A stretch of DNA of 64,000 nt, from contig OY969814.1 of NCBI GenBank assembly GCA_963703345.1, positions 1,024,001 through 1,088,000 on the forward strand, given 5' to 3'. Both the position numbers and the translations under genes were made by a program. This DNA comes from an uncultured Chloroflexia bacterium (lineage in GTDB: Bacteria > Chloroflexota > Dehalococcoidia > DSTF01 > JALHUB01). Position 1 is the first letter of the stretch, and each line of letters starts with the position of its first letter. Below are positions 1,242 through 57,895 of this stretch, one piece after another. Below the pieces are notes generated by a model. It had not been told where the DNA came from and made no database searches. It saw only the letters and a list, made by a program, of their open reading frames with translations.

Positions 1242-1571
1242 GCAGCGATATTCATCGTCCTCCGCACAGGAATCGGGGAATCGGGCCGAATTCGCAGGCT
1301 AGTCGGAGTCTATGCAAACACCATGGGGACTTAGTGTCGGGTCCAAGGGTTCTTGCGCGCTCGCCAATGGCGTGAGATCCGAGGAGTGACCGCGGCGCGG
1401 GGGCAAGGCGGCAAAAGGGCGGAGAGCCCCCTTTTCGGAAGGCTCTCCGCCGACTAGCGTTGCTTGCCTGGAGTTTGCCGGTTGTCCTCACGAGGAGCGC
1501 GTCAGCCGGGCCTAATGCCCCTTCAGCAATGACAGGAACTGATTCGACGCGGCGCGTTCCATTGGTCATTC

Positions 1572-1600
1572 TTGTCGCAGCCGCCGCCGTCTGATAGGAT
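1572..1600 (+). promoter_or_regulatory. Sigma70-like promoter upstream of the tRNA-Pro 5' half
   Basis: TTGTCG-17bp-TAGGAT, 9 nt before the tRNA-like sequence. Confidence 0.5.
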
Positions 1601-1609
1601 TCCAGCGGT

Positions 1610-1644
1610 TGGGGCGTAACGCAGCCCGGTAGCGCACGTGAATG
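1610..1644 (+). tRNA. Degenerate 5' half of tRNA-Pro (fragment, ends in the anticodon loop)
   Basis: TGGGGCGTAACGCAGCCCGGTAGCGCACGTGAATG. The acceptor 5' strand complements CGCCCCG of the downstream 3' halves, it has a Pro-type D-arm, and it breaks at the anticodon. Confidence 0.7.
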
Positions 1645-1781
1645 CGGGGTATCCCCGAGAATGCAAGCTAGTTAGGTGCACGCCCCAAGTCTGATTTCGT
1701 ATCTAAGACCCTTGCGAAGCCAGTCTATTTGGGCGCACTCATGAGAACAGGACTCATTGACGCTGGCGCTACGATCTTTCT

Positions 1782-1900
1782 GTGAGAAGGAATACCCCAT
1801 CCCGCTGCCCGCGCTGTCGCGGCTTCCTCACTGTCGACGGCTACGAACGCAACGGCACATTGTACGCATCAACTGCGGCCATGTCGCGTGGCCGGCCCGA
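1782..1900 (+). pseudogene. Small Zn-ribbon protein remnant, frameshifted
   Basis: CPRCRGFL... in one frame continues as (C)INCGHV in another after a 1-nt deletion near 1866. Confidence 0.4.
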
Positions 1901-2038
1901 GTCTTGGGACCTTCTGGGTGTGAAGCATCTGAGCATGAGCGCTGTGCATCAGAATCAGCACCCCCCCAGCGAAAACGCGGAAGTTATCATCTGGAAAATG
2001 GGCCATTAGGCGCGACTGCGACTAGTCCCAGCTGTACG

Positions 2039-2425
2039 TCACTGCTGAGAAATAATGTCCTTGAATGTTACAGGGTCTGTCGCATAGAGAACCGCTCGTT
2101 CCAAGGCTTCTTCGCGGAAACTATGAACCTTGAGATAGTCGGGGTTGTTGACCATTTTGAGGAACGCCTTGCGGGACGGATATTGGACGAGAATCACAGT
2201 ATCCCACGTCTCTATTCCATAAAGTAACTCCTTTGCATTGCCGAAATAGAGCAGCTTGGCGCCGACGTTTTCGAGGAATGGGCCCGATTCCTTGATGTAC
2301 CGAGAATAAGCCTCCCAGCCTCCTTCGTTCTTAAACTTCAGGAGATTGAGCATGACAACTGGTCTTTCATTCGTATTAGCGGCTAATTCCTGGAATTGAT
2401 CTTCGTTGGTTTTTATGCCAGTCAT
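2039..2425 (-). CDS. DUF1330-family protein
   Basis: PVVMLNLLKF...WDTVILVQYPSRKAF...HSFREEAL motifs; GAGGAG RBS; visibly AT-richer than its flanks. Confidence 0.8.
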   Translation of the reverse strand: MTGIKTNEDQFQELAANTNERPVVMLNLLKFKNEGGWEAYSRYIKESGPFLENVGAKLLYFGNAKELLYGIETWDTVILVQYPSRKAFLKMVNNPDYLKVHSFREEALERAVLYATDPVTFKDIISQQ

Positions 2426-2455
2426 CCTATTCTCTCTCCTCGGTGTTGCCGGGCT

Positions 2456-2507
2456 TGGTGGGCGATGCAGGGCTCGAACCTGGGCCCTTCTGGGTGTAAA
2501 GCAGATG
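2456..2507 (-). tRNA. 3' half of tRNA-Val(TAC), degenerate fragment
   Basis: Reverse complement reads ATCTGCTTTACACCCAGAAGGGCCCAGGTTCGAGCCCTGCATCGCCCACCA: TAC anticodon loop, T-loop and CCA, with no D-arm. Confidence 0.75.
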
Positions 2508-2642
2508 ACGACCGCAGGTGGGCATCCCGTAACAGACCCCCAAGTCCACTCGTTATCAGTGTAGAGGCTACGCACCCCAACCTGCGAACGATTGTAGCGC
2601 AAACCGGGGTTAGCGCGGCCCTACTCTTTTGCCTTTGGCCCG

Positions 2643-2840
2643 TGTGGGGTGCCAATATTCCGTCCGTATCCGGGAGAGCGGCGAGTGGCAAACCAGGACC
2701 GCCGAATGCCGGCAGAGGAGCGCAAACCCTCTGCCTGTCACGCAGGGGGTTGACGGCCCGTGGTCTGTGCCGTTCATCAGGCACAAGGGCGACTCAGAGT
2801 GCGAGCTCCACAGATACGGATGGGGCTTTGGCACCCCACA
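2643..2840. mobile_element. MITE-like non-autonomous element (198 bp) related to the IS at 30499-31660
   Basis: Terminal inverted repeats TGTGGGGTGCCAATATTCCGTCCGTATC / GATACGGATGGGGCTTTGGCACCCCACA resemble the IS ends. No transposase and no clear target duplication. Confidence 0.75.
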
Positions 2841-3001
2841 CGTGGGCCGGACTCCTGCCGCCGGGCGATTGTCCTCTCTGGGCAACCCTCGAGCAGAAGA
2901 CGGGCGACTGGGTCCCGGTGGCGACTCAGCACTAGGCCGTCAGCCACCTTGCCGTGACACTGTCATCGTTGTTCGGCTTTGAGCACCTCCGCCCGCGCCG
3001 G

Positions 3002-4304
3002 TCACCCCAGCATGGGTGGCAGGCGCGAGTTGAGCCCGTGCAGCCTAGCGTGCAAGAGGATCCAGAACGAGTGCAAAGGATTCAGGGGCACCATGTCAAG
3101 CGGCCTCACCTTCATCAGGGTGGTCAAGCCGGCGATTATGCCGCGCAGGTCATTGTGGGCGCCCACCTCGATGATCCGGCGACCAGGATAGCGTCGCCGC
3201 AGCTCCGCCCCCCGCTCGCCGATGGCGCATGGCCCCACGACTAGGATGTCGCCGGGCAGGTTCTCCAGGTCGGCGTCCCGGAAGCCCTTGCCGAAGACAA
3301 TAGTAAACCCGCCCTGGCCGGAATAGTCGTTGGTCAGTATCTCCAGGATGACTTCGCTGTTCCCCTTGCAACCCTCGACGCACGCACGCTCGCGGCCCTC
3401 GACAATGCGCACGTCGGGGTGGAAGCGTCGCAGGATGGCATAAGGATAGCGTGTCTGGAAGCGGCCGAGGTCGCCGATGACCTCGATACGCTCCAGCCGT
3501 CCCTCACCCAAGCCCCACTCCGCTGTCAGGCGTAGGTGCTCCACTTCTTCGATGTCGTAGCCCATCACCCTGGCGCCCACCGCGTCCACAGCTACCGTAT
3601 CCTGGCCGCCGACGAGGATATTGAGTTGGGCGCTGCACTCGTCCAGCAGCGTCCGCGGCGGCGCGTTCCCGTGAAACACAGCCGTAATCCCCTCGATGAT
3701 GCAGAAGTCGGGCCGCACCATCCGGTAGAGACTGGCGAGACGGAGGTGCAACGTGTCGTGATTATGGAAGTTCATGCGGTTCTCATGAATCGGGAACGCC
3801 TGCTGATTCTTCACGCCCAGTGTCACCGTCGTCATGGAGTGGGTCTTCAGCTTGGGCAGGCTCAGGTAGAAGTTTCCCGGTCGTTGCGACGGGTCGATGA
3901 ACGTCTCGTAGAGCCGGCGGGAGATGCGTATCGGCGTCTCCTCGCCCCCCAGCGTGTACGGCACCGTCCTTCCCTCGTCCAAGTAGACCAGCTCGGCGCC
4001 GTGGCGGCGGGCGATGTCGGCATAGCCGGTCACCGCGAAGACAAGACGGGTGGCGACACCATGAGAAGAGTTCTCCATCAGGGCCGCGCGACGGTAGCCG
4101 TTGTCACCCAGCCAGCCCAGCAGGGCGTTCGACTACGGCTGGCTCCGTGTACGTCCCCGCAGAGAAGTGCACGCCGTTAGGCTTGACGTAGACCCGGCTT
4201 CCGCTGGGGATGACGTTGGCGATGCCCCCGTAAGGCGCAAAGATCGCCTCCAGCGCGGCGGACACGCCGTTGCTTGTGTCGGCAATGGTGACGGCTGGTC
4301 GCAC
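3002..4304 (-). pseudogene. DUF362-family Fe-S protein, frameshifted near 4128
   Basis: VYVKPN motif in ORF 4104-4304; PKLKTH/TLGVKN/DTVAVDAV motifs in ORF 3002-4078. Removing one base joins them (VV-ALLGWLGDNGYRRAALMEN). GGAGGA RBS. Confidence 0.8.
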
Positions 4305-4522
4305 GGTCGGTACGTCCTCCGGGCTATTCGCCTCAGGTTAACACGGACCTACTCTCGTCGTGAATACGTTCGAGGCGCCAAGGCTCGACCCCCTACGGGC
4401 TCAGGTGACAATGCGGGCCGGCAGGCACGCCCGCGACCCTTTGCCTGGAAAGCAGATGGCCGCCGCTTTGAGGCGAAAGAGGCTGGGCATCCTGCACAGC
4501 CTTCATTAGTGTATGTGTGTTC

Positions 4523-4570
4523 TGGAGCGGGAAACGGGACTCGAACCAGTGACCCTCTGCTTGGGAAGCA
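4523..4570 (-). tRNA. 3' half of tRNA-Gly(CCC), fragment
   Basis: Reverse complement TGCTTCCCAAGCAGAGGGTCACTGGTTCGAGTCCCGTTTCCCGCTCCA. Confidence 0.8.
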
Positions 4571-4619
4571 AAGGCTGCAGCCATCGCCGTCTTGAGACTC
4601 AAGCGGGAACCAGAAAGCC

Positions 4620-4852
4620 TTGACCGACCGCGACCGGCACGTCACAATAGCGCTGCCTGGCGTCGCGCCGTATCAGCTACGAGCTGAGCAGCGGAAGATT
4701 CAGGAGAGACACTCGGCCTAGCCAGATTCTGCACCTGAATCTTCTCCAAGGACGGCCGCCGGCAGATTCGGAATCGGCGCTTTCGGCTGGATTCCCGACC
4801 TGATTGATGGGGTTCAGGAGGTCGTGGGTTCGAATCCCACCGCCCCGACCAG
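4620..4852 (+). repeat. Copy 1 of ~230-bp direct repeat (promoter-like boxes, hairpins, tRNA-Pro 3' half)
   Basis: High identity to 10322-10554, read by eye. Confidence 0.9.
4807..4851 (+). tRNA. 3' half of tRNA-Pro(GGG), att-like fragment, copy 1
   Basis: ATGGGGTTCAGGAGGTCGTGGGTTCGAATCCCACCGCCCCGACCA; begins exactly at the anticodon loop. Confidence 0.85.
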
Positions 4853-4935
4853 TTTCCCTACAAACTGGCACAGAACAGCCCATCATCGGGGTGGCGAATC
4901 GGTTACGAACTGACGACGCCGTGGGCTTCGCCAGC

Positions 4936-6543
4936 CTAGACTTGCGAACCCTTTCGCTGATCCGGGTTGGGGCGGCGTCCTATGCGGCGCGCGATGTCGG
5001 CGGCGAAATTAGCGGCTGTTCCCACGACGCCGCGCTGGTGGGGGATGGGGCGCATCGCGTTCGACAGTTCCGGGTGCTTCTCGGCGTAAGCCCGCACCTC
5101 CTCCAGCGTCACGCCGTAGGCGTCGAGCACGCGCTGCAGCTCCCCACGGGCCTTGTCTTTCGCCTCCTGCAGCTTCATCTGCACCCGGCTCTTGACCAGC
5201 ACCTCGCCGTCTCCTGTCGTCTCGATGGGGATAAAGACCGTGTCGGCCAGGTCGCTCACCACCTTCGCCTGGACGCCATCGCTGATCGTACTGGGCATGC
5301 AGCCGAAAGGCTTGATGGAGATCATCATGTGAGCCTTGGCGTGTCGCACCATGTATATGTGCTTGGTGACCTCCAAGTGACCCTCGCCAGCGATGAGGCG
5401 CTTCTCGTAGTAGCCTTCGGAGTAGCGGTCGAGCATGTCCATCGCTGGGAAACCCTGCGGCTTCATATTCATGATGGCGCGGTAGAAGGTGTAGAGGATC
5501 TCCCCGAAGTGCTTGCCTACACGGAGTCCGAACCAGATGAGCCAGGGGTTGGCCGTGCCCATCCCCTGCGGGTCTGACTTGACGAAGAGGCGGTCCCGCA
5601 CCTTGAGCTCGTTGAGCCAGATCATGTACTCGAACCAGGCCCCGACCGTGTCCAGCATCACCTCGGCGCCCTCGTCCTCCAGCCAGTGCAGGAGACGGTG
5701 GTTCGACTCGTCCTCCGCGTGCTTGAGGAAGAACTCGCCGGTGACCTTCACCCGTGGCTTGACCCTCAGGTAATCGACCTCGATGCGGCCGAGCTTGACC
5801 CTGATAGCCGCCATCGTCTTCGAGATGGAGAGCCCTTCTCTTGCTGCCACACGCAACATCTCGCGGGCCTCCGCCAGCGCCCTGTCGGTTGCCCCGGGGA
5901 CGACCTCGTAGGGCCGGATCTGGCAGGCGAGGTCGCCCAGGAGGTCGGCGGCGATCGCCACCTTGGCGAGGCGCCAGAACACCTTGGGCGTCATCTGCAC
6001 CCCCGCCGACTCCTGATTGATGTCGAGGCCGTGGGCGATATCCAGCATCGCGATCCGGAAGTTGGGGAAGCCGGCCGCCTTGAGCGCCTTGCGCATGTCC
6101 GCCTCGTACATCCCCATCCGGCAGGGCCCGCAGTCGCTGGCCCAAAGGAGGGCAAAGCGCTCTTCGATCTCGCTGTCGGACAGCCCTTCCCGCCGTCGCT
6201 CGAATAGGAACTTGAGCAGGGTGCCGATCGTGTAGTAGGTGGGGTTGCACTGCCCGCGGTTACAGAACTCCTTGCCGATGGCGAGCGACTCCTGATCAGG
6301 GCTGGGAAGTCGCTGCGCTTTGTAGCCGAGCCCCTCCAGCAACCCCAGAAGCACCTCCTGGAGAGTGGCGGGAAGCGCGCAAAAGACGATGGTCGTCTCG
6401 GCCTTGCTTATCGGCGTGCAGGGTTCGGCGGGCCGCTTGAAATGGCGTACCTTCGGTCCCTCGACGCCCATCTCCTGGACGAGAGCGCGCCGGAAGGCCT
6501 CAACCTCCGCCTCGATCTCAGCCACTGACTCTATCGTGGACAC
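4936..6543 (-). CDS. 2-hydroxyacyl-CoA dehydratase-like / CoA-activase partner protein
   Basis: GQCNP, CGPCRMGMY, TGEFF, GEGHLEV and KPFGCMP motifs; overlaps the upstream activase gene. Confidence 0.8.
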   Translation of the reverse strand: MSTIESVAEIEAEVEAFRRALVQEMGVEGPKVRHFKRPAEPCTPISKAETTIVFCALPATLQEVLLGLLEGLGYKAQRLPSPDQESLAIGKEFCNRGQCNPTYYTIGTLLKFLFERRREGLSDSEIEERFALLWASDCGPCRMGMYEADMRKALKAAGFPNFRIAMLDIAHGLDINQESAGVQMTPKVFWRLAKVAIAADLLGDLACQIRPYEVVPGATDRALAEAREMLRVAAREGLSISKTMAAIRVKLGRIEVDYLRVKPRVKVTGEFFLKHAEDESNHRLLHWLEDEGAEVMLDTVGAWFEYMIWLNELKVRDRLFVKSDPQGMGTANPWLIWFGLRVGKHFGEILYTFYRAIMNMKPQGFPAMDMLDRYSEGYYEKRLIAGEGHLEVTKHIYMVRHAKAHMMISIKPFGCMPSTISDGVQAKVVSDLADTVFIPIETTGDGEVLVKSRVQMKLQEAKDKARGELQRVLDAYGVTLEEVRAYAEKHPELSNAMRPIPHQRGVVGTAANFAADIARRIGRRPNPDQRKGSQV

Positions 6544-9500
6544 GTCCCCCTCCTACCAGAAGTATCTCTTCCTGCAGACGCTTGCGATAGCTCGCCACCC
6601 GCCGCTCGATCTCCTGCTCTGTCTCACGGCGACGTTGCATATCCTCCAGCCGACGGCGGAGGAAATAGTCGATCGTCTCCACCCGCAGCTTGATGGAGCC
6701 GACCGGCCGGTTCTCGTCGAGGTCATGGAAGGCGAAGTAAGGCGTACCGGCCGCCTCGAGTATCCCTTCGATCACGTGGTAGATAGGGGAGTCGAGGCCG
6801 CACTTGAAGGAGGAGAAATCGATACCGGCCAGGTTGGGATGGCGAGCGACGAACTTCGCCGCCCAGACCTTGCGGCTGGTGTTCTCGCTGAAGGTATGTT
6901 TCCAGACATCGTGGATGTCCCGGGGGTCGCCGATCTCCCCCCAGCGCACCTCCTCGCCGAAGAGCCGGTCGAGGATATCATCGTCCATGGGCAGCGAGTC
7001 GATGGTGAAGACGGGGTATCCCAGCCGCTGGATCAGCTCCGGTATGTCGTGATTCACGCCCGGGTCGTTGTGGTAGGGGCGACCAAGCAGTACTATCCCG
7101 AGACGGCCCTCGTCCTCGAGCCGGTCGAGGACCTCCCGCGCCCGTCTCCTCAGGCTGCCGCGGAACGCTGCCAGCGCTCGGTAGCCCTCCCGCATCGCCG
7201 CCGCATTCTCCTCCGGGCTCACGCCGAGGATCGGGCGGACGAAGGTCAACATCTGCTGCTCGAAAAGGTTGGGCTCGGCCATGTGGAGCACGGGGGCGTA
7301 GAAGCAAGCTCCTTTCTCGGCGAAGGCGTCTTTCTCCGTGGTGAAGGCAGCCTTTACCACCTCCGGTATCCCCTGCACCGTGGGACAACTCCAGCCTGCC
7401 TGGCACTCATAGATGTCACTGGGCACGTTCATCATCTCCGGGAAGAACACAATGTCCGGCTGCTTCTTGGTGAGGAGGTTGTGAACGTGGGAGACAGCGA
7501 TCTTCGCCGGGTAACACGGGTCGATGGAGCCGCGCCGCGAGCCCTCGCGGAACATCTGGTCGTCCGTGTAGTCGGACCAGAGGATGTTGCGATGCAGCAC
7601 GCCTAGGCTCTCCAGATACGCGGTGAAGAACGGGGCATAGGAGTACATGGTGAGCAGCCGTGGGATGCCGATGCGCACCGTCGCCCGCCGCTCCCGCAGC
7701 CGCGCCACCGTCCCGCTGCCGTCCCAAACCGACAGGAAGCGCCGGCCGCTGCCGTTGGTGGCAGCGACGCTCTGCGGCGAGTAGCTGTGGAACGCCTCGC
7801 GGGCGGCGATCTCGATGAAGTTGGGGTTCGCCTTCTTCACCGCATTCTCGCGGGTGTTGAAGACCCTCACCGCGTCGATGCTCTCCGCCATCCCTCGCTC
7901 GCAGGTGGCGGAGATGAAGCGGGTCGTGTGTTCGGGCGAGGTCCTGATGTCGACGAAAGTGCGGAGGCACTTGTTCTTGCAGAACGAGCAGCGGGTCGAT
8001 TCGTCGCGGGTGGTGGTGAAGGTGAGCGCCTCCACCCGGTCGAACCCGATGAACGAGCTCTCCCCGCCGTCGCTCACGCGGATCGCCTCGCTGGCAGCGC
8101 CGAGGGCGCCGCTCTCACCGGCGTGCGGATGGACGTGGATCTTCGCGTCCGGCACGCGAGCCTTGATGAAGTCGTACTGCGCCTTGACCACGGCGAGGTT
8201 GTAGTGCGTCCCTCCCTGCAGGAGGAAGGTCTTGCCGAAGCGGGCCAGGTTCGTCTCCTGGACGACGTAGAGCCAGACGTTCTTGGGCAGGGTGAGAGCA
8301 AGGCCGGCCATGATCTCGGACGGCTGCCAGCCGAGCTGCTGGAAGTGCGAGATGTCCTGCTCCAGGAAGACGGCGCAACCGTAGTGAAACGCCGGCGCCC
8401 GCTCGGCGCTGAGGGCGACATCGGCCCACTGATTGAGGTCGTAGCCGAAGCGGGCGGTCGTGCTCTGGAGGAAATAGCCGTTGCCGGCCGAGCACTGCGT
8501 GTTGAGCTTGAAATCCTTGACGGCGCCCGCCTTCATGATGATGACCTTGATGTCCTGCCCCCCAACGTCGGCGATGACGTCCACGTCGGGGTAGTAGCGG
8601 AGGGCGGACCGGGCGTGGGCGACTGTCTCCGGGATCGCCAGGTCGGCGCCGAGCGCCTCCTTCAGTAGGTCCTTGGCGTAGCCCGTCGTGGCCATGCCGA
8701 GGATGCGCAGGCGCGCGCCCTGCCCCTCCACCTGGCGGCGCAGCTCGCCCAGTATCTCCTTGGCATCCTGGAGCGGGTTACCTTTGCAGAGCTGGTAGGC
8801 CTTCGCCAGCAGATTGCCTCCAACGTCCGTGAGGACGGCCTTCGTCGAGGTTGAACCGCCGTCCAGCCCCATGTATGCTTCCACAACCTGGCCGGGCGAG
8901 AAGGCGAGAGGGGTGAACGGTTTAGTGCCGTAAAGACGGCGGAACTCCTCGAGGTCTTCGCCGGGGGCGAGAGGACCCCGCTGGCCGGTGTGCTGCTTCG
9001 CCTTCCGCCGACCGAGGTCGATGTACTCCTCCAGCGCCGCCGTCCCGGCGTAAGTGCCGGCGAGTCCCTCCTCCTGCTGGCCGTAGAGAGCCGTCCCCAA
9101 GGCGGCATAGTACAGGGAGTGCTCCGGCACAACGATTAGCTCCTCGGCGGTGGAGCCGGCGGGCAGCGCCAGCCCCCGTTCCTCCCAGAGGCGCGGCACA
9201 TGTCGCCGCCATGCCTCCTGCAGACAGGGGAAGAAGGTGTTGGGGCCGCCCAGGAGGAGCACCTTGGGGCGCAGAACGTTGCCGCGGGTGAGCACGCTGA
9301 GGTTCTGCTGGACAATCGCCTCAAACAGGGAGACCATCAGATCCTCGGGGGGGACGCCCTGCTTCTGAAGGCTGTTCATATCGGTCTCCGCGAAGACGCC
9401 GCACTTGCCGGCGACGGGGTACACCTTCGCGCTGGCATACCGCATTTCCCGGAGCTGCGCCGGGCTCAGGTGCAGCTTCGCCGCGATGCGGTCGATGACA

Positions 9501-10000
9501 GCGCCCGTGCCGCCGGCGCACTTATCGTTCATGTTGGCGAGCTTCCGCTTGCGGCCCGTCTTCGGGTCCTCCCGCCAGATGATGATCTTGGCGTCCTGCC
9601 CTCCCAACTCGATGACTGAGCCCACGTCCGGCTGCAGTGCCTCCGCGGCCAGGGAGACGGCGTTGACCTCCTGCACGAACCGCGCCCCAATGTGAGGGGC
9701 GAGCGTCGCGCCGCCGCTTCCGGTGACGAAGATGCGGAACTGCTCGACGGGCAAGAGGAAGCGCTCTTCTATCTCCTTGAGGACCTCGAGGACCTTCTCC
9801 GGCTGGCACGTCTCATGGAGGCGGTAGTCGGCGCAGAGGATCTCCTTGCTGTCGGGCGCGACGACCACGTACTTGACGGCTGTCGAGCCAACGTCAAGCC
9901 CGATGATGAGCTCGCAGTGAGACGAGCCGTCGCCGTCCTGATGCGGTGTCAAGACCGAGGACGACAAAGCATGTGTGGTACCGTCACCCTCAACCTCCAA
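6518..10000 (-). CDS. CoA-substrate-specific enzyme activase (two BadF/BadG/BcrA/BcrD ATPase domains + DUF2229-like)
   Basis: GLDVGST and GLDGGST, GGQDAK/GGQDIK, CAGGTG/CSAGNG, DPCYPAK and GRPYH motifs. Start codon uncertain. Confidence 0.9.
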   Translation of the reverse strand: MEVEGDGTTHALSSSVLTPHQDGDGSSHCELIIGLDVGSTAVKYVVVAPDSKEILCADYRLHETCQPEKVLEVLKEIEERFLLPVEQFRIFVTGSGGATLAPHIGARFVQEVNAVSLAAEALQPDVGSVIELGGQDAKIIIWREDPKTGRKRKLANMNDKCAGGTGAVIDRIAAKLHLSPAQLREMRYASAKVYPVAGKCGVFAETDMNSLQKQGVPPEDLMVSLFEAIVQQNLSVLTRGNVLRPKVLLLGGPNTFFPCLQEAWRRHVPRLWEERGLALPAGSTAEELIVVPEHSLYYAALGTALYGQQEEGLAGTYAGTAALEEYIDLGRRKAKQHTGQRGPLAPGEDLEEFRRLYGTKPFTPLAFSPGQVVEAYMGLDGGSTSTKAVLTDVGGNLLAKAYQLCKGNPLQDAKEILGELRRQVEGQGARLRILGMATTGYAKDLLKEALGADLAIPETVAHARSALRYYPDVDVIADVGGQDIKVIIMKAGAVKDFKLNTQCSAGNGYFLQSTTARFGYDLNQWADVALSAERAPAFHYGCAVFLEQDISHFQQLGWQPSEIMAGLALTLPKNVWLYVVQETNLARFGKTFLLQGGTHYNLAVVKAQYDFIKARVPDAKIHVHPHAGESGALGAASEAIRVSDGGESSFIGFDRVEALTFTTTRDESTRCSFCKNKCLRTFVDIRTSPEHTTRFISATCERGMAESIDAVRVFNTRENAVKKANPNFIEIAAREAFHSYSPQSVAATNGSGRRFLSVWDGSGTVARLRERRATVRIGIPRLLTMYSYAPFFTAYLESLGVLHRNILWSDYTDDQMFREGSRRGSIDPCYPAKIAVSHVHNLLTKKQPDIVFFPEMMNVPSDIYECQAGWSCPTVQGIPEVVKAAFTTEKDAFAEKGACFYAPVLHMAEPNLFEQQMLTFVRPILGVSPEENAAAMREGYRALAAFRGSLRRRAREVLDRLEDEGRLGIVLLGRPYHNDPGVNHDIPELIQRLGYPVFTIDSLPMDDDILDRLFGEEVRWGEIGDPRDIHDVWKHTFSENTSRKVWAAKFVARHPNLAGIDFSSFKCGLDSPIYHVIEGILEAAGTPYFAFHDLDENRPVGSIKLRVETIDYFLRRRLEDMQRRRETEQEIERRVASYRKRLQEEILLVGGGRVHDRVSG

Positions 10001-10212
10001 GATCTGCCCGCGATGCCGTCCCCAGAAAAGGATGAGCCCCGCCGGCGTAAGACGCGCTGTAGAGTGGAAGCTCGGCTCCTGCGATCTCTAATAATACCAG
10101 TGACCCCCTTCAAGAGCGCTACCCCAGTCTATGTTAGTGCGACCACCACCCCAAGCCGTAACGAGTCGGAGCATCTGCTCGGGAATCGGATGGTTGCCGC
10201 GTCGGAAACGCG

Positions 10213-10238
10213 AAAGGCTGGGCAAAATGCCCAGCCTT
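10213..10238 (-). terminator. Intrinsic terminator-like hairpin downstream of the tRNA-Gly fragment
   Basis: AAGGCTGGGC-AAAAT-GCCCAGCCTT; related hairpins lie at ~4478-4503 and 38607-38632. Confidence 0.55.
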
Positions 10239-10257
10239 GCCTCTGTATGTCAACGGC

Positions 10258-10294
10258 GGAGCGGGAAACGGGACTCGAACCCGCGACCCTCTGC
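10258..10294 (-). tRNA. 3' fragment of tRNA-Gly, copy 2
   Basis: GGAGCGGGAAACGGGACTCGAACCCGCGACCCTCTGC on the plus strand; matches the other Gly fragments. Confidence 0.75.
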
Positions 10295-10321
10295 CCGGAA
10301 TCAGCTGCCGCACGCATCTTC

Positions 10322-10554
10322 TTGACTGGCAGCAGCCAGCACGCCACAATAGCGCTGCCTGGCGCCGCGCCGTATCAGCTACGAGCTGAGCAGCGGAAGA
10401 TTCAGGAGAAACACTCGGCCTGGTCAGATTCTCCGCCTGAATCTTCTCCAATGGCGGCCGCTGGCAGATTCGGGATCGGCGCTTTCGGCGGGATTCCCGC
10501 CCTCAATGATGGGGTTCAGGAGGTCGTGGGTTCGAATCCCACCGCCCCGACCAG
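10322..10554 (+). repeat. Copy 2 of ~230-bp direct repeat
   Basis: High identity to 4620-4852. Confidence 0.9.
10509..10553 (+). tRNA. 3' half of tRNA-Pro(GGG), copy 2
   Basis: Identical 45-mer to 4807-4851. Confidence 0.85.
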
Positions 10555-10690
10555 AATGAAATCAGAGGGTCGCTTTCGAAGCTGGAGAAAAGGCAGCGCG
10601 GCTCTTTTTAGGTGGACGCACCAACGCCTAACGAGTGGGTTCAGGAGGTCGGTCTGGCAAAGGCGACCTCCTGAATGGTATCGGACCAGA

Positions 10691-10715
10691 TCACATTACG
10701 TCACACCTGCTCACA
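10691..10715 (+). repeat. Helically phased TCACA direct repeats (10-bp period)
   Basis: TCACA at 10691, 10701 and 10711; homologous array at 16982-17016. Confidence 0.65.
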
Positions 10716-10998
10716 GCTTGTCTCGCGCCTGAACACCAGAGAAGCGCGATAAGGTGTCAGGCGATAGTAAGAGTTGCTACTTGCCCACCCTCATCCGCCC
10801 CTGCAGTTGACCTCGGTTGTCTCTCTGGCCTCGGTGGGTCGCTTGTGTGGTGGCCCTCTTCTTGTCGCAGTCCTCCAACGAGGACTAGCCCATTTCCACC
10901 TCAGGGGGCAAACCCGGCGCCTCCCCCACCGGGGTGACACGAACCGCTTTACGTCTCAAGCGGCCGAGAGATAGGCTGGCGATTGCTTATCAAGAGAG

Positions 10999-12663
10999 AT
11001 GATGGACACCTCAGGCACACAGTCGCAGTGCGCCGCCCGGTACTACCTTGTGAGCGAACAGAGAACGAGCCTCAGAAACCACAGAGGCCTCCTGCGCCTT
11101 CGAGGGCGAGGCCGCCTGCTGTCGTTGCTCGAGATGCCGGCCATCCTCACCCGACTGAACGTCGCGCCCGATGGACGCTTCGTTCCCGAGATGCAGGATT
11201 GGGAGTCTTTCTGGGCACCGGCGCATGAGCTAGCCAACCCGCAGATCGATCACGTCCTGGAGAGGCTTCACGCTTCCTGGCAGGACTACATCCGATCTCG
11301 CTTCGACCGATCGCTGCAGCGGGAGTACTGCCTCTGGTACTTCTCCCTCCTGGATCTCATCTTGGCGACGCCCGTTGGCCGGCGGGATTCCCTCCCCTGG
11401 CAGCGGGCGCTACGGGCCGTCGTGGGCTTCGAGTGTTTCGGCATAAGGGCACCAGCCCTCGGCGCGGAGGCTCTGGCTGCGGGCACGATGACCCTTCGCA
11501 ACCCCTGTTACGTCCTTGCCAAGCTCAGATGGCCGGACGCCTTGGACGATACCCAGTTCCTTCCCCTCATCGGCCCACCACACGGCAAGCCTGCCAGCCT
11601 CTACTACCACTACCGGCAGTACCGGCTCTCAAAGGATTCACCTATGTCGCTTCTTCTGTATGTGGCGGCCGCTCCCACGCATCGCTTGACGAGCTTCAGA
11701 CTCGTTGAGTCGTTGGCGCGGGGCGTCAGTTCAGGCGGCGATCCTCGCACTGGGCAGCGGGCGCGACGCCTGTGGGAGAAGGTTCTCAGGCCGATCGTCC
11801 AAACTGCCCGCACCGATGCAACGACAGCAATGCCCGTTGAGTTAGTTGACGTCGGCGCGGGCAGTGGCGCCCTGACCGCTGCTCTCTGCCATAGGCTCCT
11901 GGCCTGGGGCGTGGCAAACGGACTCTTGCCTCGGCTTCGCGTATGGTTTGTGGACTTGTGCCTCTCCGACCCGGCGCGGTTCTTTCGGGCCGCTGGCCTG
12001 AGAAACCGCATCGACAGTCTGACGTTCCTGGGCGACGACTATCGCCGTTGGCTGGCGCGGCCGGGGCCGCTGCCCGAATCCTCAGGTATTCGAGTGGCGC
12101 TAATCTCGAAGCTCTTCAACAACTTGAGCCGTTTCTCAGTTTGCCGTTGTCGCACAGATGTGCTATCCTCCTCGTCAACTGGCACACCGTTCATCGACGG
12201 GCGAAGGCACCTGCCGTCTTTCTGTTTGGCGCCCGACGGTGCGGGTCCGGAGGCTCTCGTGATCTCCACTTCACGCCTTGGCTTGGCTGAGGGCCGGACC
12301 TTTGCCCAAGCCTCACTCTCAGACTACTACCGTGCGCTCCAGCTGGCGCTCGCGGACGGCAAAGAGGAGGAGGTATCGGAGGACGGAGCCTGGCTGCCAC
12401 TGAGGGCCCTCGATCCTGGATGCCTCATCGCCGCCGACGGGACGAGTGTACTCGCGCGGCTCTTGGAGCACTGCGACTACCTCATCGTTGAGGACGCCGA
12501 TCTGAGGCCGAAGGACATCGTCAAACACCTGCGAGCGTTCTCGCTGGATGGGCTGGCCGCCCTTGACATGACCAAGACGCTGGGCCTCATCGGGAACCAC
12601 GCATACCTACTCTCAAGCAAGGGTGAAAAGAAGACTTCACTACCGGGGGAGCGAATATGGTAG
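10999..12663 (+). CDS. Hypothetical protein with a class I SAM-dependent methyltransferase-like C-terminal region
   Basis: LVDVGAGSG motif I followed by WFVD (acidic end of strand 2); N-terminal half not recognised. Confidence 0.65.
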   Translation: MMDTSGTQSQCAARYYLVSEQRTSLRNHRGLLRLRGRGRLLSLLEMPAILTRLNVAPDGRFVPEMQDWESFWAPAHELANPQIDHVLERLHASWQDYIRSRFDRSLQREYCLWYFSLLDLILATPVGRRDSLPWQRALRAVVGFECFGIRAPALGAEALAAGTMTLRNPCYVLAKLRWPDALDDTQFLPLIGPPHGKPASLYYHYRQYRLSKDSPMSLLLYVAAAPTHRLTSFRLVESLARGVSSGGDPRTGQRARRLWEKVLRPIVQTARTDATTAMPVELVDVGAGSGALTAALCHRLLAWGVANGLLPRLRVWFVDLCLSDPARFFRAAGLRNRIDSLTFLGDDYRRWLARPGPLPESSGIRVALISKLFNNLSRFSVCRCRTDVLSSSSTGTPFIDGRRHLPSFCLAPDGAGPEALVISTSRLGLAEGRTFAQASLSDYYRALQLALADGKEEEVSEDGAWLPLRALDPGCLIAADGTSVLARLLEHCDYLIVEDADLRPKDIVKHLRAFSLDGLAALDMTKTLGLIGNHAYLLSSKGEKKTSLPGERIW

Positions 12664-13628
12664 ACGTCATCAGGGCGGGCCGCAGGTCGGCGGTCCTGAC
12701 GCCGTCCGACCTCCCTTGCCTCTCGACGATCCCAACCATCAACCTCACCGCCGGCTGTCTCCACGGCTGCGCCTACTGCTACATCCGCGGCTACAGCACG
12801 TTCCCCGGCGAGGGTCGGGTGGTCCTGTACGAGAACACGCTGGAGAAGCTCCAGCATGAACTTGTGCGACGGCGGGCGAAACCGCGTGCGGTCTACTTCA
12901 GCCCCTCCAGCGACCCCTTCCAGCCAGCACCGGAGGTTCTCGAGCTCGCCCGGGCGGTGCTTGCGTTTCTGCTCAGGGAGGGGATCGGCGTTGCCTTCTT
13001 GACCAAGGGCCGCATTCCCGACAATATAATGCGGCTTCTCGTCGAGCACGCCGAGTTGGTGCGGGCCCAGGTCGGCATCACCACCTTGGACGACGCTGTC
13101 TCGCGGGCGTTCGAGCCCAACTCCGCCAGCCCCGAACAACGCCTGGCGCAGATGCAGGCGCTCATCGCCGCCAACGTGCCGACGGAGGCGCGGCTCGACC
13201 CTGTCCTGCCGGGTCTGACGGACGACCCGCGGTCGATGGATCGCCTCTTCGCCGCCCTGACCCGGATCGGCGTCAGGCGGGCGGCGGCGAGCGTGCTCTT
13301 CCTCAGACCGGCCATCGTGCAATCTCTTCGATGGAACGTGCCCGACAAGGAGATGCTGGCGCGGCTCCTCAGCGCCTACCAGGGGAGCGAGCGTATAGGG
13401 CTCCGCGGCACCGGATCACACGTCCAGACGCTGCCGTCCGCGGTCAGAGGCGAACTCTTCGCGCGGATGCGGGAGATAGCGTTGGCGCACAGCATCGAGT
13501 TGAGTATCTGCGCCTGCAAGAACCCTGACCTGGCGAGCGGCTCCTGCAATATCGCCGGCAGATGGCCCAAGCAGGAGGCCTGGTCCGTTCAGCCTGTCCT
13601 TGCAGGTGAGTTTGCCAGCAGGCAGTGA
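12657..13628 (+). CDS. Radical SAM protein, spore-photoproduct-lyase-like family
   Basis: GCLHGCAYCY (CxxxCxxC), SSDPFQP, LTKG, FEP and PVLPGLTD motifs; start overlaps the upstream stop. Confidence 0.9.
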   Translation: MVDVIRAGRRSAVLTPSDLPCLSTIPTINLTAGCLHGCAYCYIRGYSTFPGEGRVVLYENTLEKLQHELVRRRAKPRAVYFSPSSDPFQPAPEVLELARAVLAFLLREGIGVAFLTKGRIPDNIMRLLVEHAELVRAQVGITTLDDAVSRAFEPNSASPEQRLAQMQALIAANVPTEARLDPVLPGLTDDPRSMDRLFAALTRIGVRRAAASVLFLRPAIVQSLRWNVPDKEMLARLLSAYQGSERIGLRGTGSHVQTLPSAVRGELFARMREIALAHSIELSICACKNPDLASGSCNIAGRWPKQEAWSVQPVLAGEFASRQ

Positions 13629-13640
13629 AAAGGTGAACGC

Positions 13641-14274
13641 ATGCTTCAGGATATCCCTATTGATAGCCTTGTCGCCCATCCTGACAACAGCAACCACATG
13701 AGCACCGAGATGCTCAAGAAGCTGCGTCGGCATATCGAACGGACGGGAAGATACGAGCCGCTGACTGTCCGCCCGCACCCGAGCGCGGAGGACAAGTATG
13801 AGGTTCTCAACGGTCACAACCGGCTGCGCGTCCTTCGGGCTATCGGACGAAACTCGGCGTGCTGTGTCGTGTGGGATGTCGACGACTCCCAGGCCAGGCT
13901 CTATCTCGCCACACTCAACCGCCTCGCCGGCAGCGATACTCCGGAACGGCGGGCGGCTCTTCTGGAGAACCTTCTAGGCACCTTCGATATGACGGAGCTT
14001 TTGGGGGTTGCTCCCTGATAGTCAACGCCAAATCGAGGAGCTCCAGCGGCTGTCACGCCTGGACACAGAAGAACTCATCTCTTCCGGCATGACTGACAGA
14101 GACGAATCTGGCGTGCCCGTTATCCTAGACTTCGTTCTGGAGGAGTCCGAGGCCAAGGAAGTGAACCTCGCCCTGGACATGGTCCGAGCCCCTGAAGGAC
14201 AGAGCATCTCCAGCGGCCAGGCGCTTGTCCGGCTCGCACGCTTCTATCTCGCTGGCTGCAAGCCAAGCTGCTGA
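13641..14274 (+). pseudogene. ParB/Srx N-terminal-domain protein split by a 1-nt insertion in the G run at 14003-14007
   Basis: HPDNSN, PLTVR, YEVLNGHNRLR and LNRLAG motifs. Dropping one G gives ...TELLGLLPDSQRQIEEL..., joining ORFs 13641-14018 and 14008-14274. Could be a sequencing error. Confidence 0.75.
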
Positions 14275-14317
14275 GAGTAGGCCGCCGCTCCATGCTCCCA
14301 ATCTGAGGCAGGCTTCT

Positions 14318-14716
14318 ATGGGGAACGACCACTTTTCAGAGCTGCTGCGGCACTTCAAGCGGAGTGAGGCTCCCGAGGCCGTCCTCCTCGTAGCCGACGA
14401 CCCAACGCTTACCAAGATCGTCGTGGCATGGAACAATCTTGACCTACGGCCGGGCAAGAAGCCTAGGCGATCCCCCGGAGAGTCGGAGCATGACCAGTGG
14501 GACTGGCTCTGGGCCAACGTCAGCTATTCCCTCGAGGACTTGGCCGAGAGAAGCGGTCTCACTGTCGCTCTCATCGAGCGGAAGCTTAAGCCGCTCATCG
14601 GGAACCGCATTCTGTATCCCGACGGTTCTGTGAACTCGTTCGTGCAGCGGTATCTGCGGGAACGGGTACTCAAGCTGTTCGATGCGAAACCGAGGAAGCC
14701 GGCCAAAACCGGTTGA
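14318..14716 (+). CDS. Hypothetical protein, possible winged-HTH C-terminus
   Basis: Same strand as the operon. YSLEDLAERSGLTVALIERKLKPL is HTH-like. Start taken at ATG 14318. Confidence 0.65.
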   Translation: MGNDHFSELLRHFKRSEAPEAVLLVADDPTLTKIVVAWNNLDLRPGKKPRRSPGESEHDQWDWLWANVSYSLEDLAERSGLTVALIERKLKPLIGNRILYPDGSVNSFVQRYLRERVLKLFDAKPRKPAKTG

Positions 14717-14968
14717 CACTCTTCACAACGGCCGCAGGCGCCATTCCGCCAGCGCAGTACCTACGGCTGTTTGCTCGATCCGCTGTGTCTGACCTACAAG
14801 CACATGCGGCCGGAGGACTCAGCCCATCTCATTAGTCTACGCCACCCTCGCCACAATCCGTGGCTGGCCGACTAACCGCCCCGCCGCGGATTTGCGGGTC
14901 ACACCAGGAATACAGGCGGCGGGGGCAGCTACGGACAGCGTTTTGCCTCCACACCTCTGGCGCCCCAC

Positions 14969-15002
14969 TTGCATGTCATCGGAATGTCAAATATAGTTTG
15001 AC
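14969..15002 (+). promoter_or_regulatory. Sigma70-like promoter with palindromic operator for abiEi
   Basis: TTGCAT-17bp-TATAGT. GTCAAA-N5-TTTGAC spans the -10. The ATG is 7 nt after the -10, so the mRNA is probably leaderless. Confidence 0.7.
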
Positions 15003-15004
15003 CT

Positions 15005-15643
15005 ATGAGTGACATCAATGCCGCATCGCGCACCCGCCGACCTGCTTCCCAACCGGATCGCGCCCGACTCTTCGATATCGCTTCAGAGCAGGGTGGCTAC
15101 TTCACGGCTGAGCAAGCCCGGGTTTCTGGTTTTAGCCGATCACTTGTCTCGCATCACGTGAAGAGCGGCCGGTTCATCAGAGTACGTCGGGGACTGTATC
15201 GCTTTCGTGAGTATCCGGCGTCGCCGCGTGAGCACGTGCTCGCCGCGTGGCTCGCAGTAGGGAAGGACGTAGCCGTCGTCTCGCACGAAAGCGCACTTGA
15301 CCTGCTCGACCTCAGCGACGTGATACCGGATGCGGTACACCTTACTGTTCCTCGGTCGCGGCGCAACGTCCTCACGCTCCCCGGTGTGAAGGTCCACACC
15401 ACTGCTCGATCACCAAGGTCGGAAGACGTTGTCGTGCGCGATGGTATGGCCATCACCTCGGCCACGCGCAGCATCCTCGACGCAGCCGAGATGGGGACAG
15501 CACCGGAGCAGCTTGAGATGGCTGTCATTCAGGCGATTGAGCGCGGCCTGGCCACCCCGCGACAACTGCGGCAGGATGCCGTAGCGCGCGGACGGCGAGT
15601 GGCAACACTGATCGAGGAAGCGCTTCGCAGGTTTCGGCAATGA
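15005..15643 (+). CDS. abiEi: Type IV toxin-antitoxin AbiEi-family antitoxin
   Basis: QGGYFT, RVRRGLYR, VVSHESAL and VHLTVP motifs; ATGA overlap with the next gene. Confidence 0.88.
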   Translation: MSDINAASRTRRPASQPDRARLFDIASEQGGYFTAEQARVSGFSRSLVSHHVKSGRFIRVRRGLYRFREYPASPREHVLAAWLAVGKDVAVVSHESALDLLDLSDVIPDAVHLTVPRSRRNVLTLPGVKVHTTARSPRSEDVVVRDGMAITSATRSILDAAEMGTAPEQLEMAVIQAIERGLATPRQLRQDAVARGRRVATLIEEALRRFRQ

Positions 15644-16524
15644 AATACGCCACTCCCGGCGCATTCCGTAGGGCTCTCGAACAGTGACTCCTGACGATGG
15701 CCAGGGAGACAGATGTCCCACTGATGCGGCTGCGCAAGCTCGTTGTCTTCGACCGCTTGATGGCGCGCCTGGTGGTCGTGGCTCCGAACCGCTGGGTCGT
15801 CAAGGGTGCGGCGGCCCTCCTCTTTCGCCTGGGAGCCAGGTCTCGCACCACGAAAGACCTCGATCTCGGGCGCCAAGATAACGAGGAGGCGGCAACGGCC
15901 GACTTTCTTGCAGCACAGTCGCTCGATCTTGGTGACCACTTCACGTTTGCCATCGAGCGCACGAAGAAGCTGGACGCGATGCTGGAAGGTGTCGCGGTGC
16001 GGTACCACGTTGTCGCAGAGTTCGGCGGGCGCGTGTTTGAGGACGTGACGGTCGACGTCGGCTTCGGGGATCCCGTCGTCGCTGATCCAGAGCTCGTGCG
16101 CGGACCAGATCTACGGAGCTTCGCGGATATCCCTCCCGCCGAAGTGCCGGCGTTGCCTCTGGAACAGCATGTCGCCGAGAAGATTCATGCCTACACCCGG
16201 AGCTACGTCGGCGGCCGCCCGAGCACCCGTGTCAAGGACCTTCTCGACCTCGCCATGATGGGGTCGCTCTTCAGCTTCCAGGCTGGCCGCCTGCGGCGAG
16301 CCCTTGAGGCCACGTTTGCTGCTCGTGATACCCATCTGCTGCCATCTGTGCTTCCTGCGCCACCGCCCCAGTGGGGTGTTGCGTACCGAAGGACGGCTAC
16401 CGAGGTCGGTTTGGACTCTGACATGTCGATGGGGTACGAGCAGGCGGCGGCGTTTCTCAATCCGATCTTGGCGGGGACAACTCCATCTGATGCCCGATGG
16501 GATCCCGTGCAGCGTACCTGGTAG
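15640..16524 (+). pseudogene. abiEii: AbiEii-family nucleotidyltransferase toxin with a premature TGA at codon 16 (possible restart at 15697)
   Basis: MKYATPGAFRRALEQ*LL; KGAAAL (usually KGG), RTTKDLDL, AEKIHA and STRVKDLLDL motifs. Confidence 0.85.
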
Positions 16525-16804
16525 TAGGAGGGGTCACGAGACGGCATGGAGTAGTAGGATAAGGCCTCGCCTCAGACACGAGAATGGGCCCGATAGCGCC
16601 GTCCAGGATCACACGGGAGGACTTGCGCCGAACTTCAAAACCTTGGGTATCGCTTCTTGGCCAGCGCCGCCTGCCCCTTGCACAATATGCTGAAATAGCT
16701 AGAATTAGCTCGAATTAGGTGCGGCGCGACCGCCTGAATAGGCGCCGAAGGCGGTCCGCATCGAATCTGAAAAGGCCGGTTTCGCCTCGAAACTCAGCCT
16801 CCAA

Positions 16805-16849
16805 ATGGGGTTCAGGAGGTCGTGGGTTCGAATCCCACCGCCCCGACCA
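16805..16849 (+). tRNA. 3' half of tRNA-Pro(GGG), copy 3
   Basis: Identical 45-mer; shares downstream GAATGAAATCAG with copy 2. Confidence 0.85.
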
Positions 16850-16863
16850 GAATGAAATCAGGA

Positions 16864-16905
16864 GGTCGGTTTCGAGGCTAACAGCCCGCGAAACCGACCG
16901 TTTTT
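16864..16905 (+). terminator. Intrinsic terminator after the tRNA-Pro 3' half
   Basis: GGTCGGTTTCG...CGAAACCGACC stem followed by GTTTTT. Confidence 0.7.
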
Positions 16906-16981
16906 GCGTTCCTCCAAGGCCGCCTGTAATCAGGAGGTCGCTTCCACAAGCAGGCAGCCTCCGGAGGATCGTCTCACCACA

Positions 16982-17016
16982 TCACACCGCGTCACACCTG
17001 CTCACAACCCGTCACA
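16982..17016 (+). repeat. Helically phased TCACA direct repeats (4 copies, 10-bp period)
   Basis: TCACA at 16982, 16992, 17002 and 17012; shares CGTCACACCTGCTCACA with the 10.7-kb array. Confidence 0.7.
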
Positions 17017-17040
17017 GGGCGCCCCGGCTCAGGCGGAGAG

Positions 17041-17091
17041 TTCGGTTTCCTAAACCGAAGGGCGCAGGTTCGAGTCCTGCCGGGAGTATCA
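17041..17091 (+). tRNA. tRNA-Arg(CCT) fragment/pseudogene
   Basis: Anticodon arm TCGGT-TTCCTAA-ACCGA, T-arm GCAGG-TTCGAGT-CCTGC, degenerate end ATCA; weak D-arm-like traces upstream. Confidence 0.75.
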
Positions 17092-17094
17092 CAC

Positions 17095-17220
17095 CCGAAT
17101 GGATTGTCGGCACACTACAGCGCCGGATCGTCGCTCTACCGGTTCTCGGTGGCCTTCACCACGAGTACGATTGGGTGGCCGCTTGAGGTACGCAGATGGA
17201 TCCAATATTGTTCCCTCACA
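17095..17220 (+). mobile_element. Internally deleted IS remnant (transposase C-terminus + terminal IR)
   Basis: Encodes IVGTLQRRIVALPVLGGLHHEYDWVAA, similar to the 30535-31566 C-terminus; ends ...ATTGTTCCCTCACA. Confidence 0.8.
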
Positions 17221-17326
17221 GGGTGCGGCATGAGCCGCCCGCAGCTCGGATCGGGGTCCTTCGACCCCACAACGGTCTGCGCAGGCCTTAGCGTGGATCT
17301 GAGATAAGCATGCGAACGCCCTGGAA

Positions 17327-38659: not shown

Positions 38660-38705
38660 TGGAGCGGGAAACGGGACTCGAACCCGCGACCCTCTGTTTG
38701 GGAAG
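38660..38705 (-). tRNA. 3' half of tRNA-Gly(CCC), copy 3
   Basis: TGGAGCGGGAAACGGGACTCGAACCCGCGACCCTCTGTTTGGGAAG on the plus strand, with a hairpin at 38607-38632. Confidence 0.8.
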
Positions 38706-49402: not shown

Positions 49403-49419
49403 GAACTGTCGGCGCTCTG

Positions 49420-50648: not shown

Positions 50649-50708
50649 CTCATGCCTCCTTCTGAGCGGTCCGCCTAGGCGCGGTCACTTGCGCCGCCGG
50701 AACCGCCA

Positions 50709-57756: not shown

Positions 57757-57790
57757 TGGAGGAAGTGAGGGGTTCGAACCCTCGACTCCC
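57757..57790 (-). tRNA. Possible tRNA 3'-end remnant (Ser-like; identity uncertain)
   Basis: Reverse complement GAGGG-TTCGAAC-CCCTC-ACTTCCTCCA: T-arm + CCA, but no recognisable anticodon arm. Confidence 0.4.
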
Positions 57791-57895
57791 GGATTCGCTG
57801 CCTCTCGGTCACTCGTTGAGCCTGCCGCATCACCATGGGGACATGGTGCCTCAAGGCTGGCCCATATGCCCTGCAGGGGATGAAGGGGGACGGAG

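Follow-up and report, generated by a model that had tools for sequence, protein, structure and literature searches.

A tandem array of tRNA-Pro(GGG) 3' halves bounding units largely without an integrase in an uncultured Chloroflexota genome

The window, that is, the whole stretch of 64,000 nucleotides that was analysed (C1:1024001-1088000 of the source genome, G000), comes from an uncultured bacterium of the class Dehalococcoidia (Chloroflexota; assembly GCA_963703345.1) and contains three copies of the 3' half of a proline transfer RNA (tRNA), tRNA-Pro(GGG), which bound units of variable gene content. The source genome is a single contig of 2.28 Mb and is 95.9% complete; the other G numbers designate genomes of relatives and L numbers the stretches that were read. 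The 3' halves are numbered R1-R4 in order from the anchor, an intact tRNA-Pro(GGG) gene, and the intervals between them are called units. Positions are those of the window unless given as genome positions. The array is made up of the following features.

Genome 1016600-1016676: intact tRNA-Pro(GGG), found with ARAGORN, 7.4 kb upstream of the window
Genome 1016832-1018013: tyrosine integrase open reading frame (ORF) of 393 codons (PF00589), beginning 155 bp after the tRNA-Pro
4571..4806, + strand: right arm of unit 1, with a sigma-70-like promoter directed outward (4620-4648) and four motifs, which lie at -110, -73, -44 and -8 relative to the anticodon loop
4807..4894, + strand: R1, tRNA-Pro 3' half 4807-4851 (100%) and 43 bp (97.7%) common with the sequence behind the intact tRNA
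10321..10508, + strand: right arm of unit 2, of the same family as the unit 1 arm (91% to the R1 arm), promoter 10322-10350
10509..10760, + strand: R2, tRNA-Pro 3' half 10509-10553 (100%) and left arm of unit 3
16679..16804, + strand: right arm of unit 3, a second arm type, 86% over 118 bp to the arm of the R4 site (genome 1096163-1096280)
16805..17088, + strand: R3, tRNA-Pro 3' half 16805-16849, R2-like left arm, Arg-type arm and degenerate tRNA-Arg(CCT) (17019-17088)

Read from the anchor, the order is tRNA, unit 1 (12.2 kb, with the integrase), R1, unit 2 (5.7 kb, interval 4852-10508), R2, unit 3 (6.3 kb, interval 10554-16804), R3, unit 4 (55.5 kb) and R4, R1 being the right end of the integrase-bearing unit 1 and the left end of unit 2. 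The 45-bp halves at 4807, 10509 and 16805 are mutually identical and equal tRNA positions 33-77 (100%; E 7e-20 for each against the genome), and the first base of each is the first base of the anticodon loop, as a preliminary description made from the window alone had claimed. That description lacked the inverted 3' halves at 4523 and 10258 (Gly) and 2456 (Val) as well as R4, which lies 8.4 kb beyond the end of the window (genome 1096377-1096421) and is locally inverted. R4 is an R3-type site whose central 143 bp (G000:C1:1096287-1096429) are flipped compared with the order in G007, G008 and L105; this flip of the Pro half and the 90 bp behind it is either a real inversion or a consensus error.

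The window itself holds no integrase and no intact tRNA-Pro, as had been stated: searches for tyrosine and serine recombinases were negative, and ARAGORN gives only the degenerate tRNA-Arg(CCT); with relaxed settings it yielded nothing beyond noise. The picture of a locus without these two genes has to be abandoned, however, since a search for an intact tRNA-Pro(GGG) with an adjoining integrase found both upstream of the window. The tRNA has a DUF5656 gene in front of it, and the same neighbour is found in G003, G007, G008, G013 and G015. The integrase has the catalytic R-K-H-R-H-Y set (read by eye from the translation) and scores 53.7 bits against the integron integrase model TIGR02249 (IntI), over its C-terminal part only, compared with a cut-off of 265. 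None of the six tyrosine or four resolvase-domain matches of the genome lies between the unit 1 integrase and the fourth Pro half. Units 2 and 3 have no match to PF00589, PF07508 or PF00239 and no relaxase among the scanned ORFs. With regard to the features of integrative and mobilizable elements, unit 1 of G000 has an integrase and no relaxase among its scanned ORFs. In an Islander-type test the intact tRNA is accompanied by a displaced 3' fragment of the same orientation at R1-R3, while R4, being inverted, fails; a tyrosine integrase lies inside unit 1 only and is absent from units 2-4.

The sequence next to the halves had been described as diverged, which calls for correction: 234 bp upstream of R1 and R2 are common to both at 91% identity, and the 43 bases behind R1 are common to the intact gene. 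For the study of the arm, 30 distinct Pro 3' halves were gathered from relatives and from a single metagenome scan (three duplicates dropped); 22 of them have this arm type, 20 assigned by BLAST to the R1 arm and two by the -44 motif. Over about 240 bp the motifs keep their positions, at -44 in 21 of the 22, at -73/-74 in 19 and at -110/-111 in 18; the pattern used to find the metagenome arms itself fixes the -8 motif. Of the 22 arms, 17 have a sigma-70-like promoter pattern directed at the half, as do four of the eight other copies (21/30), compared with 133 of 1488 intergenic background windows; a separate promoter scan of 20 kb gave five hits, both window arms among them, against 2.7 in shuffled sequence. 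When 20 of the 22 copies are aligned, the arms have a mean identity of 64% and the 3' halves 98.5%; the seven mismatches found in 1350 bp of 3' halves (30 copies) give an inflated view of conservation, since the copies were collected by similarity to the tRNA. The covariation term of the arm is -0.07, with a two-sided change in one of 25 predicted pairs, and an Rfam search gave only tRNA-clan and sub-threshold matches. Of 42 sites, 31 have related motifs in the first 250 nt on their downstream side, compared with 249 of 964 background windows; R1 and R3 have none there. Fixed motif spacing with free spacers fits protein-binding sites on DNA, and judged from their sequence the motifs would be sites of a recombinase or an accessory protein; the promoter may be a feature like Pcirc, inherited from autonomous elements. 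Among 300 other genomes sampled from the class the Pro arm gave one match, in the same genus, and no description of such arms was found in the literature searched, which was covered in part and without supplements. Carriage by phage was considered and rejected, the Pro half and the Val-arm pattern giving no match to viral contigs (exact matches only).

The units vary among relatives. Three Pro halves follow the tRNA in G008, seven lie on two contigs in G006 and two on one contig in G002, and their cargo is unrelated. In the 60 kb read for L016-L017 (G006:C3:8332-39043) there are five arm-bearing Pro halves and no intact tRNA-Pro, which is either an orphan array or the effect of a contig break. 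Sixteen Pro units have both ends (G006 six, G000 four, G008 three, and G002, L096 and L101 one each), and a tyrosine recombinase is found in three of them and absent from 13, according to hidden Markov model searches for the genomes and tblastn for the two metagenome loci. The earlier proposal of a tandem array of integrase-less units with variable cargo, bounded by attachment (att) sites, is supported. Two elements beginning with this integrase are fully assembled, unit 1 of G000 and a 63.5 kb element of G006 that also encodes Replic_Relax, a coupling protein and ParA, and both terminate in the same arm; only two close relatives of the integrase were found in the genome contigs. In G015, from another genus, the left end of unit 3 stands directly behind the intact tRNA, with its first gene at a distance of 447 bp. 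The DNA identity to unit 3 is 89.6% over 3050 bp from the first base of the repeat (89% over 207 bp for the left arm), compared with 57-73% for the flanking core proteins. The ends of unit 2 recur in G007 beside other neighbours. Synteny across relatives is thus not fixed. The order at R3, Pro half followed by Arg arm and Arg half, recurs in G007, G008, G012, L103 and L105; in this pattern (window 16850-17088) an Arg-type arm, in which TCACA words repeat, and a tRNA-Arg(CCT) half come within 170-450 bp after the Pro half.

The interior of units 1-3 contains the following features.

1571..1739, + strand: decayed 5' half of tRNA-Pro (1611-1644) with a promoter-like site and an arm resembling the one of a 5'-replacing Pro element; 171 bp match the G002:C23 5'-half junction at 72%
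1905..2505, - strand: tRNA-Val-type mini-cassette of unit 1, with Val 3' half (2505-2456), DUF1330 gene (2353-2039, PF07045) and Val arm with decayed core (2031-1905)
3002..4078, - strand: DUF362 gene, unit 1 cargo (PF04015, E 3.7e-23)
4523..4570, - strand: tRNA-Gly(CCC) 3' half, back to back with the Pro arm, 96% to tRNA-Gly positions 29-76
4936..10000, - strand: unit 2 cargo, an activase-type gene (6518-10000; acyl-CoA dehydratase activase; PF01869, PF09989, TIGR00241) and an unannotated partner (4936-6543)
10258..10294, - strand: tRNA-Gly-type 3' half that travels with the activase genes
10999..16524, + strand: unit 3 cargo, a possible methyltransferase (10999-12663), radical SAM (12657-13628), ParB-N (13641-14018), small ORFs, AbiEi (15005-15643) and AbiEii (15697-16524)

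The 5' half at 1611-1644 corresponds to tRNA positions 2-35 at 91% identity, with three substitutions, and is preceded by a -10-like TAGGAT common to the real tRNA-Pro gene; to this extent the promoter-linked 5' half of the preliminary description is confirmed. Its place is within unit 1, the one with the integrase, on the downstream side of the intact gene, with a mobile-element-like arm behind it, and it is not the partner of the 3' halves, so the split-tRNA framing falls. A 5' half downstream of the intact gene is the configuration that Islander rejects, according to the section of PMC4383910 concerned. In G002:C23 a 14-kb element lies between the native 5' half and the restored tRNA, and the 5' half of the window is best read, from sequence likeness, as the decayed end of a second, 5'-replacing element type that would be a passenger inside unit 1.

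The cargo named earlier is confirmed for DUF1330, DUF362, the BcrAD_BadFG/DUF2229 activase, radical SAM, ParB_N and AbiEi/AbiEii, and the methyltransferase label is weak: 10999-12663 has no Pfam match, PrmC gives E 0.0025, and Atlas neighbours are named S-adenosylmethionine-dependent methyltransferase at 0.92 with a sub-threshold recognition score. Several parts of units 1 and 2 recur elsewhere. The Val mini-cassette is 93% identical over 531 bp to the last unit of the tRNA-Val array of the genome, window 4931-10300 is 92% identical to a unit of the tRNA-Gly(TCC) array of G008, and the junction of the Gly(CCC) half at 4523-4570 with the Pro arm is also present in G006, L099, L103 and L105. The activase partner occurs in 8 of 17 other genomes of the family (75-95% identity) and in none of 43 genomes of other families searched. 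In G007 it belongs to the Pro array, in G008 it is flanked by tRNA-Gly(TCC) halves, in G003 it lies at tRNA-Arg(CCG) and in G002 beside transfer-messenger RNA (tmRNA) and Lys fragments; in G010, G015 and G016 no tRNA fragment is nearby. Unit 4 has further Gly(CCC) and Lys(TTT) fragments (38660-38705 and 57765-57795, - strand); next to its Gly half is a CoA-transferase/thiolase block that in G002 makes up a Pro-bounded unit and in G012 comes after a Pro half. The window also contains an IS3-type transposase (30535-31566), an 18-bp tandem repeat within ORFs without Pfam match (753-1022), a gene with 126-bp WD40-like repeats that is apparently split into several ORFs (49374-52382), and dispersed intergenic repeats (2635-2745 and 17122-17222) that recur several times in other parts of the genome, often close to att sites.

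The genome has 49 tRNA or tmRNA fragments outside called genes. The tRNA-Val(TAC) array (G000:C1:1252833-1259685; L003:8833-15685) has five 3' halves about 1 kb apart with conserved arms of 70-130 bp, forming units of 0.8-2.6 kb with no integrase nearby, and a second Val group lies at 1919362-1923381. Val arrays without an adjoining integrase are also found in G001, G003, G007, G008, G012, G013, G016 and G017; in all nine stretches holding a Val anchor or array the units are about 0.7-2.5 kb and no integrase adjoins. At G000:C1:1444001-1476000 and 2237080-2241657 (L054-L056) tRNA-Gly(TCC) and tRNA-Gly(CCC) have a duplicated 5' half on their upstream side and, beside the tRNA, a divergent integrase or a fragment of one, as in elements that bring a 5' half with them. 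At G000:C1:1810855-1811088 the first 28 bases of tRNA-Asn occur three times ahead of the intact gene, spaced 103 bp apart, and a 3' fragment is located 280 bp behind that gene. A region of 47 kb at tRNA-Arg(CCG) (G000:C1:1895189-1942499; L004, L005, L057) has serine and XerC-like recombinases and Val, Lys and Gly halves, and its layout resembles that of the Dsi module.

Taken together, the locus is a real tandem att array of a known kind; what is added is the mapping of an arm, the presence of a candidate helper within the array and cargo that several tRNA families have in common. The reading preferred here, with a probability of roughly 0.62, is that the array behind the intact tRNA-Pro(GGG) was likely built by repeated insertion of tyrosine-integrase elements at the anticodon loop, a common crossover site according to the pertinent part of PMC4383910, and that the two integrase-less units with arm-like ends would move only with a helper such as the unit 1 integrase. 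Each incoming circle would restore the tRNA and push older units outward. Units 2 and 3 would be of the type of cis-mobilizable elements (CIMEs), derived by deletion or by a swap of cargo: they lie in tandem with an integrase-bearing element at the same site, unit 1 preceding them, and they have no genes for integration or transfer. Of their putative attL and attR ends, the right arms are conserved, as is the left arm of unit 3 in G015, and the left arm of unit 2 matches over 43 bp only. Unit 2 would be the likeliest substrate of the neighbouring integrase, because both of its end types are common with unit 1; unit 3, with the other arm type, would need a related enzyme. Mobilisation in trans is what we infer; since the array itself includes a candidate helper, co-excision in cis is no less likely.

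Several observations weigh against this reading. The arm type of unit 3 was found in one of 93 genomes of the order searched, the source genome only, and no integrase tied to its right arm was found. Between the left arms of units 1 and 2 the match is limited to 43 bp, and in unit 2 a search for four motifs found none within 250 bp. A terminator lies behind the tRNA in the left arm of unit 1, where it would block Pcirc-type read-through into the integrase, and the integrase has a -35-like site of its own. The integrase of the G006 element is interrupted, and the G015 contig ends inside the unit, at whose far end an integrase is possible. No circle or empty-site joint at the att cores was well supported in the contigs of seven distinct runs, a weak test; one joint from the tRNA end to just past R2 has a short side of only 26 letters, paralogy among the Val arms accounts for the go-back joints at the Val unit, and one contig comparison was swamped by tRNAs of other organisms. 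The fixed -8 motif and the inflated conservation noted above belong here as well.

Many of the same data could be explained by frozen accretion scars, the units being immobile remnants and hitch-hiked DNA, the arms recent leftovers, and the cargo moving by homologous recombination or co-excision. The 143-bp inversion at R4 and the decay of the 5' half and of distal Val halves (in G008 and G003, not in G000) agree with this, as do the three units of G008 without a close homolog of the integrase (best 36%) and the activase homology, whose ends vary among hosts (4894-4975 and 9910-10372); McMurdie 2011 (PMC3146451), in the portion concerned, allows some module-less islands as fixed. Scars would not account well for motifs and spacing kept while the spacers diverge to a mean of 64% identity, for the precise boundary at the repeat in G015 or for nearly invariant 3' halves, and this explanation is regarded as rather unlikely. 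Misassembly, with the repeats as mis-joins, has in its favour that no contig among those compared spans the whole stretch; it is hardly credible for a 95.9% complete single-contig genome whose junctions recur in G015, G007, G006, G002 and metagenome contigs. A functional RNA or split tRNA, in which the arm promoter would yield a leader and tRNA 3'-half RNA acting alone or pairing with the 5' half, would agree with the promoter pattern facing 21 of 30 halves and with halves that are conserved and end in CCA. It is very improbable given the intact tRNA-Pro(GGG), the three substitutions and mobile-element arm of the 5' half, a leader without covariation and the lack of an Rfam family beyond tRNA-clan and sub-threshold matches; a split or trans-spliced tRNA was rejected because the intact gene exists and the 5' half is decayed.

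A wider version of the preferred reading would be a genome-wide cassette network in this bacterial family: phased arms with one common accessory motif would keep integrase-free units at several tRNAs ready for recombination, rare helper integrases would serve them, and cargo would pass between tRNA families by way of a Gly anticodon-loop site built into the distal end of the Pro arm. This is doubtful, and a dedicated system, in which a single accessory factor serves the Pro, Gly, Lys, Val and tmRNA arrays and cargo is loaded at that Gly loop, is decidedly unlikely. Such a network would explain why 16 of 30 halves of G000, listed by hand and from five tRNA or tmRNA families, have AGATTC/GAATCT in the 130 nt ahead of the core (190 of 2336 background windows), a count inflated by related copies within families, which are not independent; the positions are -42/-43 for Pro, -43 for Gly, -44 for Lys, -46 for tmRNA and -32 for Val. 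It would also explain why 13 of 22 Pro arms, counted by eye, end distally in a Gly loop or half with different sequences beyond, as well as the activase genes at Pro, Gly(TCC), Arg(CCG) and tmRNA/Lys islands of different genomes, and the nine Val stretches without an adjoining integrase. The reciprocal prediction failed, a Pro arm or inverted Pro half being found around none of the other Gly(CCC) halves (0/20 regions), by which an element with dual attP for Pro or Gly was rejected; no second Gly att end was seen inside units 1 or 2, and no common factor or integrase tied to the Val arm was identified. If the common motif and Gly site function as supposed, they would give new cargo a route into such arrays. 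For the present the locus is a well-mapped case of known tandem accretion.

Integrons are stacks of variable gene units served by a recombinase that the units do not encode, with the newest unit beside the anchor. The present array is similar in its variable units and putative external recombinase, and in some Val arrays the newest unit is beside the anchor, but it has a non-IntI integrase, tRNA-derived sites, no covarying attC-like hairpin and multi-gene units in either orientation. The integron-like mechanism suggested in the preliminary description is therefore rejected, the integrase scoring below the integron-integrase cut-off and the arm having no covarying hairpin, and CIME-type accretion is the best reading. 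The ssrA islands of Dehalococcoides, of the same bacterial class, are likewise stacked between repeats of the target 3' end (McMurdie 2009, PMC2764846; McMurdie 2011, PMC3146451); in the parts of these papers concerned, 15 islands without an integration module are proposed as cis-mobilizable and repeated tRNA-Ala 3' fragments are reported. There the target is the ssrA T-loop, the enzyme the serine recombinase DsiB and the motif 15 bp long, whereas here they are the tRNA-Pro anticodon loop, a tyrosine integrase and an arm that measures about 240 bp and combines phased motifs with a promoter. Whether module-less units are live or fossil is a point left open for Dehalococcoides. The present locus unites a candidate helper with a likely substrate whose ends match and with an arm that is mapped precisely, so that integrase-less CIME-type units can be tested as live substrates against fossils.

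The outward promoter, at the end far from the integrase and upstream of it on circularisation, and the tRNA target are as in ICEclc with its Pcirc, in what the review PMC5812530 gives on that element; unlike there, a terminator lies between core and integrase, and the promoter is kept in units without an integrase. Four tandems of three or more are counted among 3919 islands in the part of the Islander paper concerned (PMC4383910), and island finders that demand an integrase per unit miss such arrays. Compared with the Prochlorococcus tycheposons, as far as the relevant part of their description goes (bioRxiv 10.1101/2020.12.28.424599), several tRNAs seed islands in both, newer islands push older ones outward, and partial tRNAs are scattered and the cargo is metabolic; there 474 of 501 have a tRNA-associated tyrosine recombinase, whereas 13 of 16 bounded units here do not. 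With the CIMEs, as outlined in the section of the review PMC5704250 concerned, the units have in common the lack of integration and transfer genes, the tandem with an integrase-bearing element and, putatively, both att ends, and the conservation of the arms across genera and the first position of unit 3 in G015 suggest more than passive decay.

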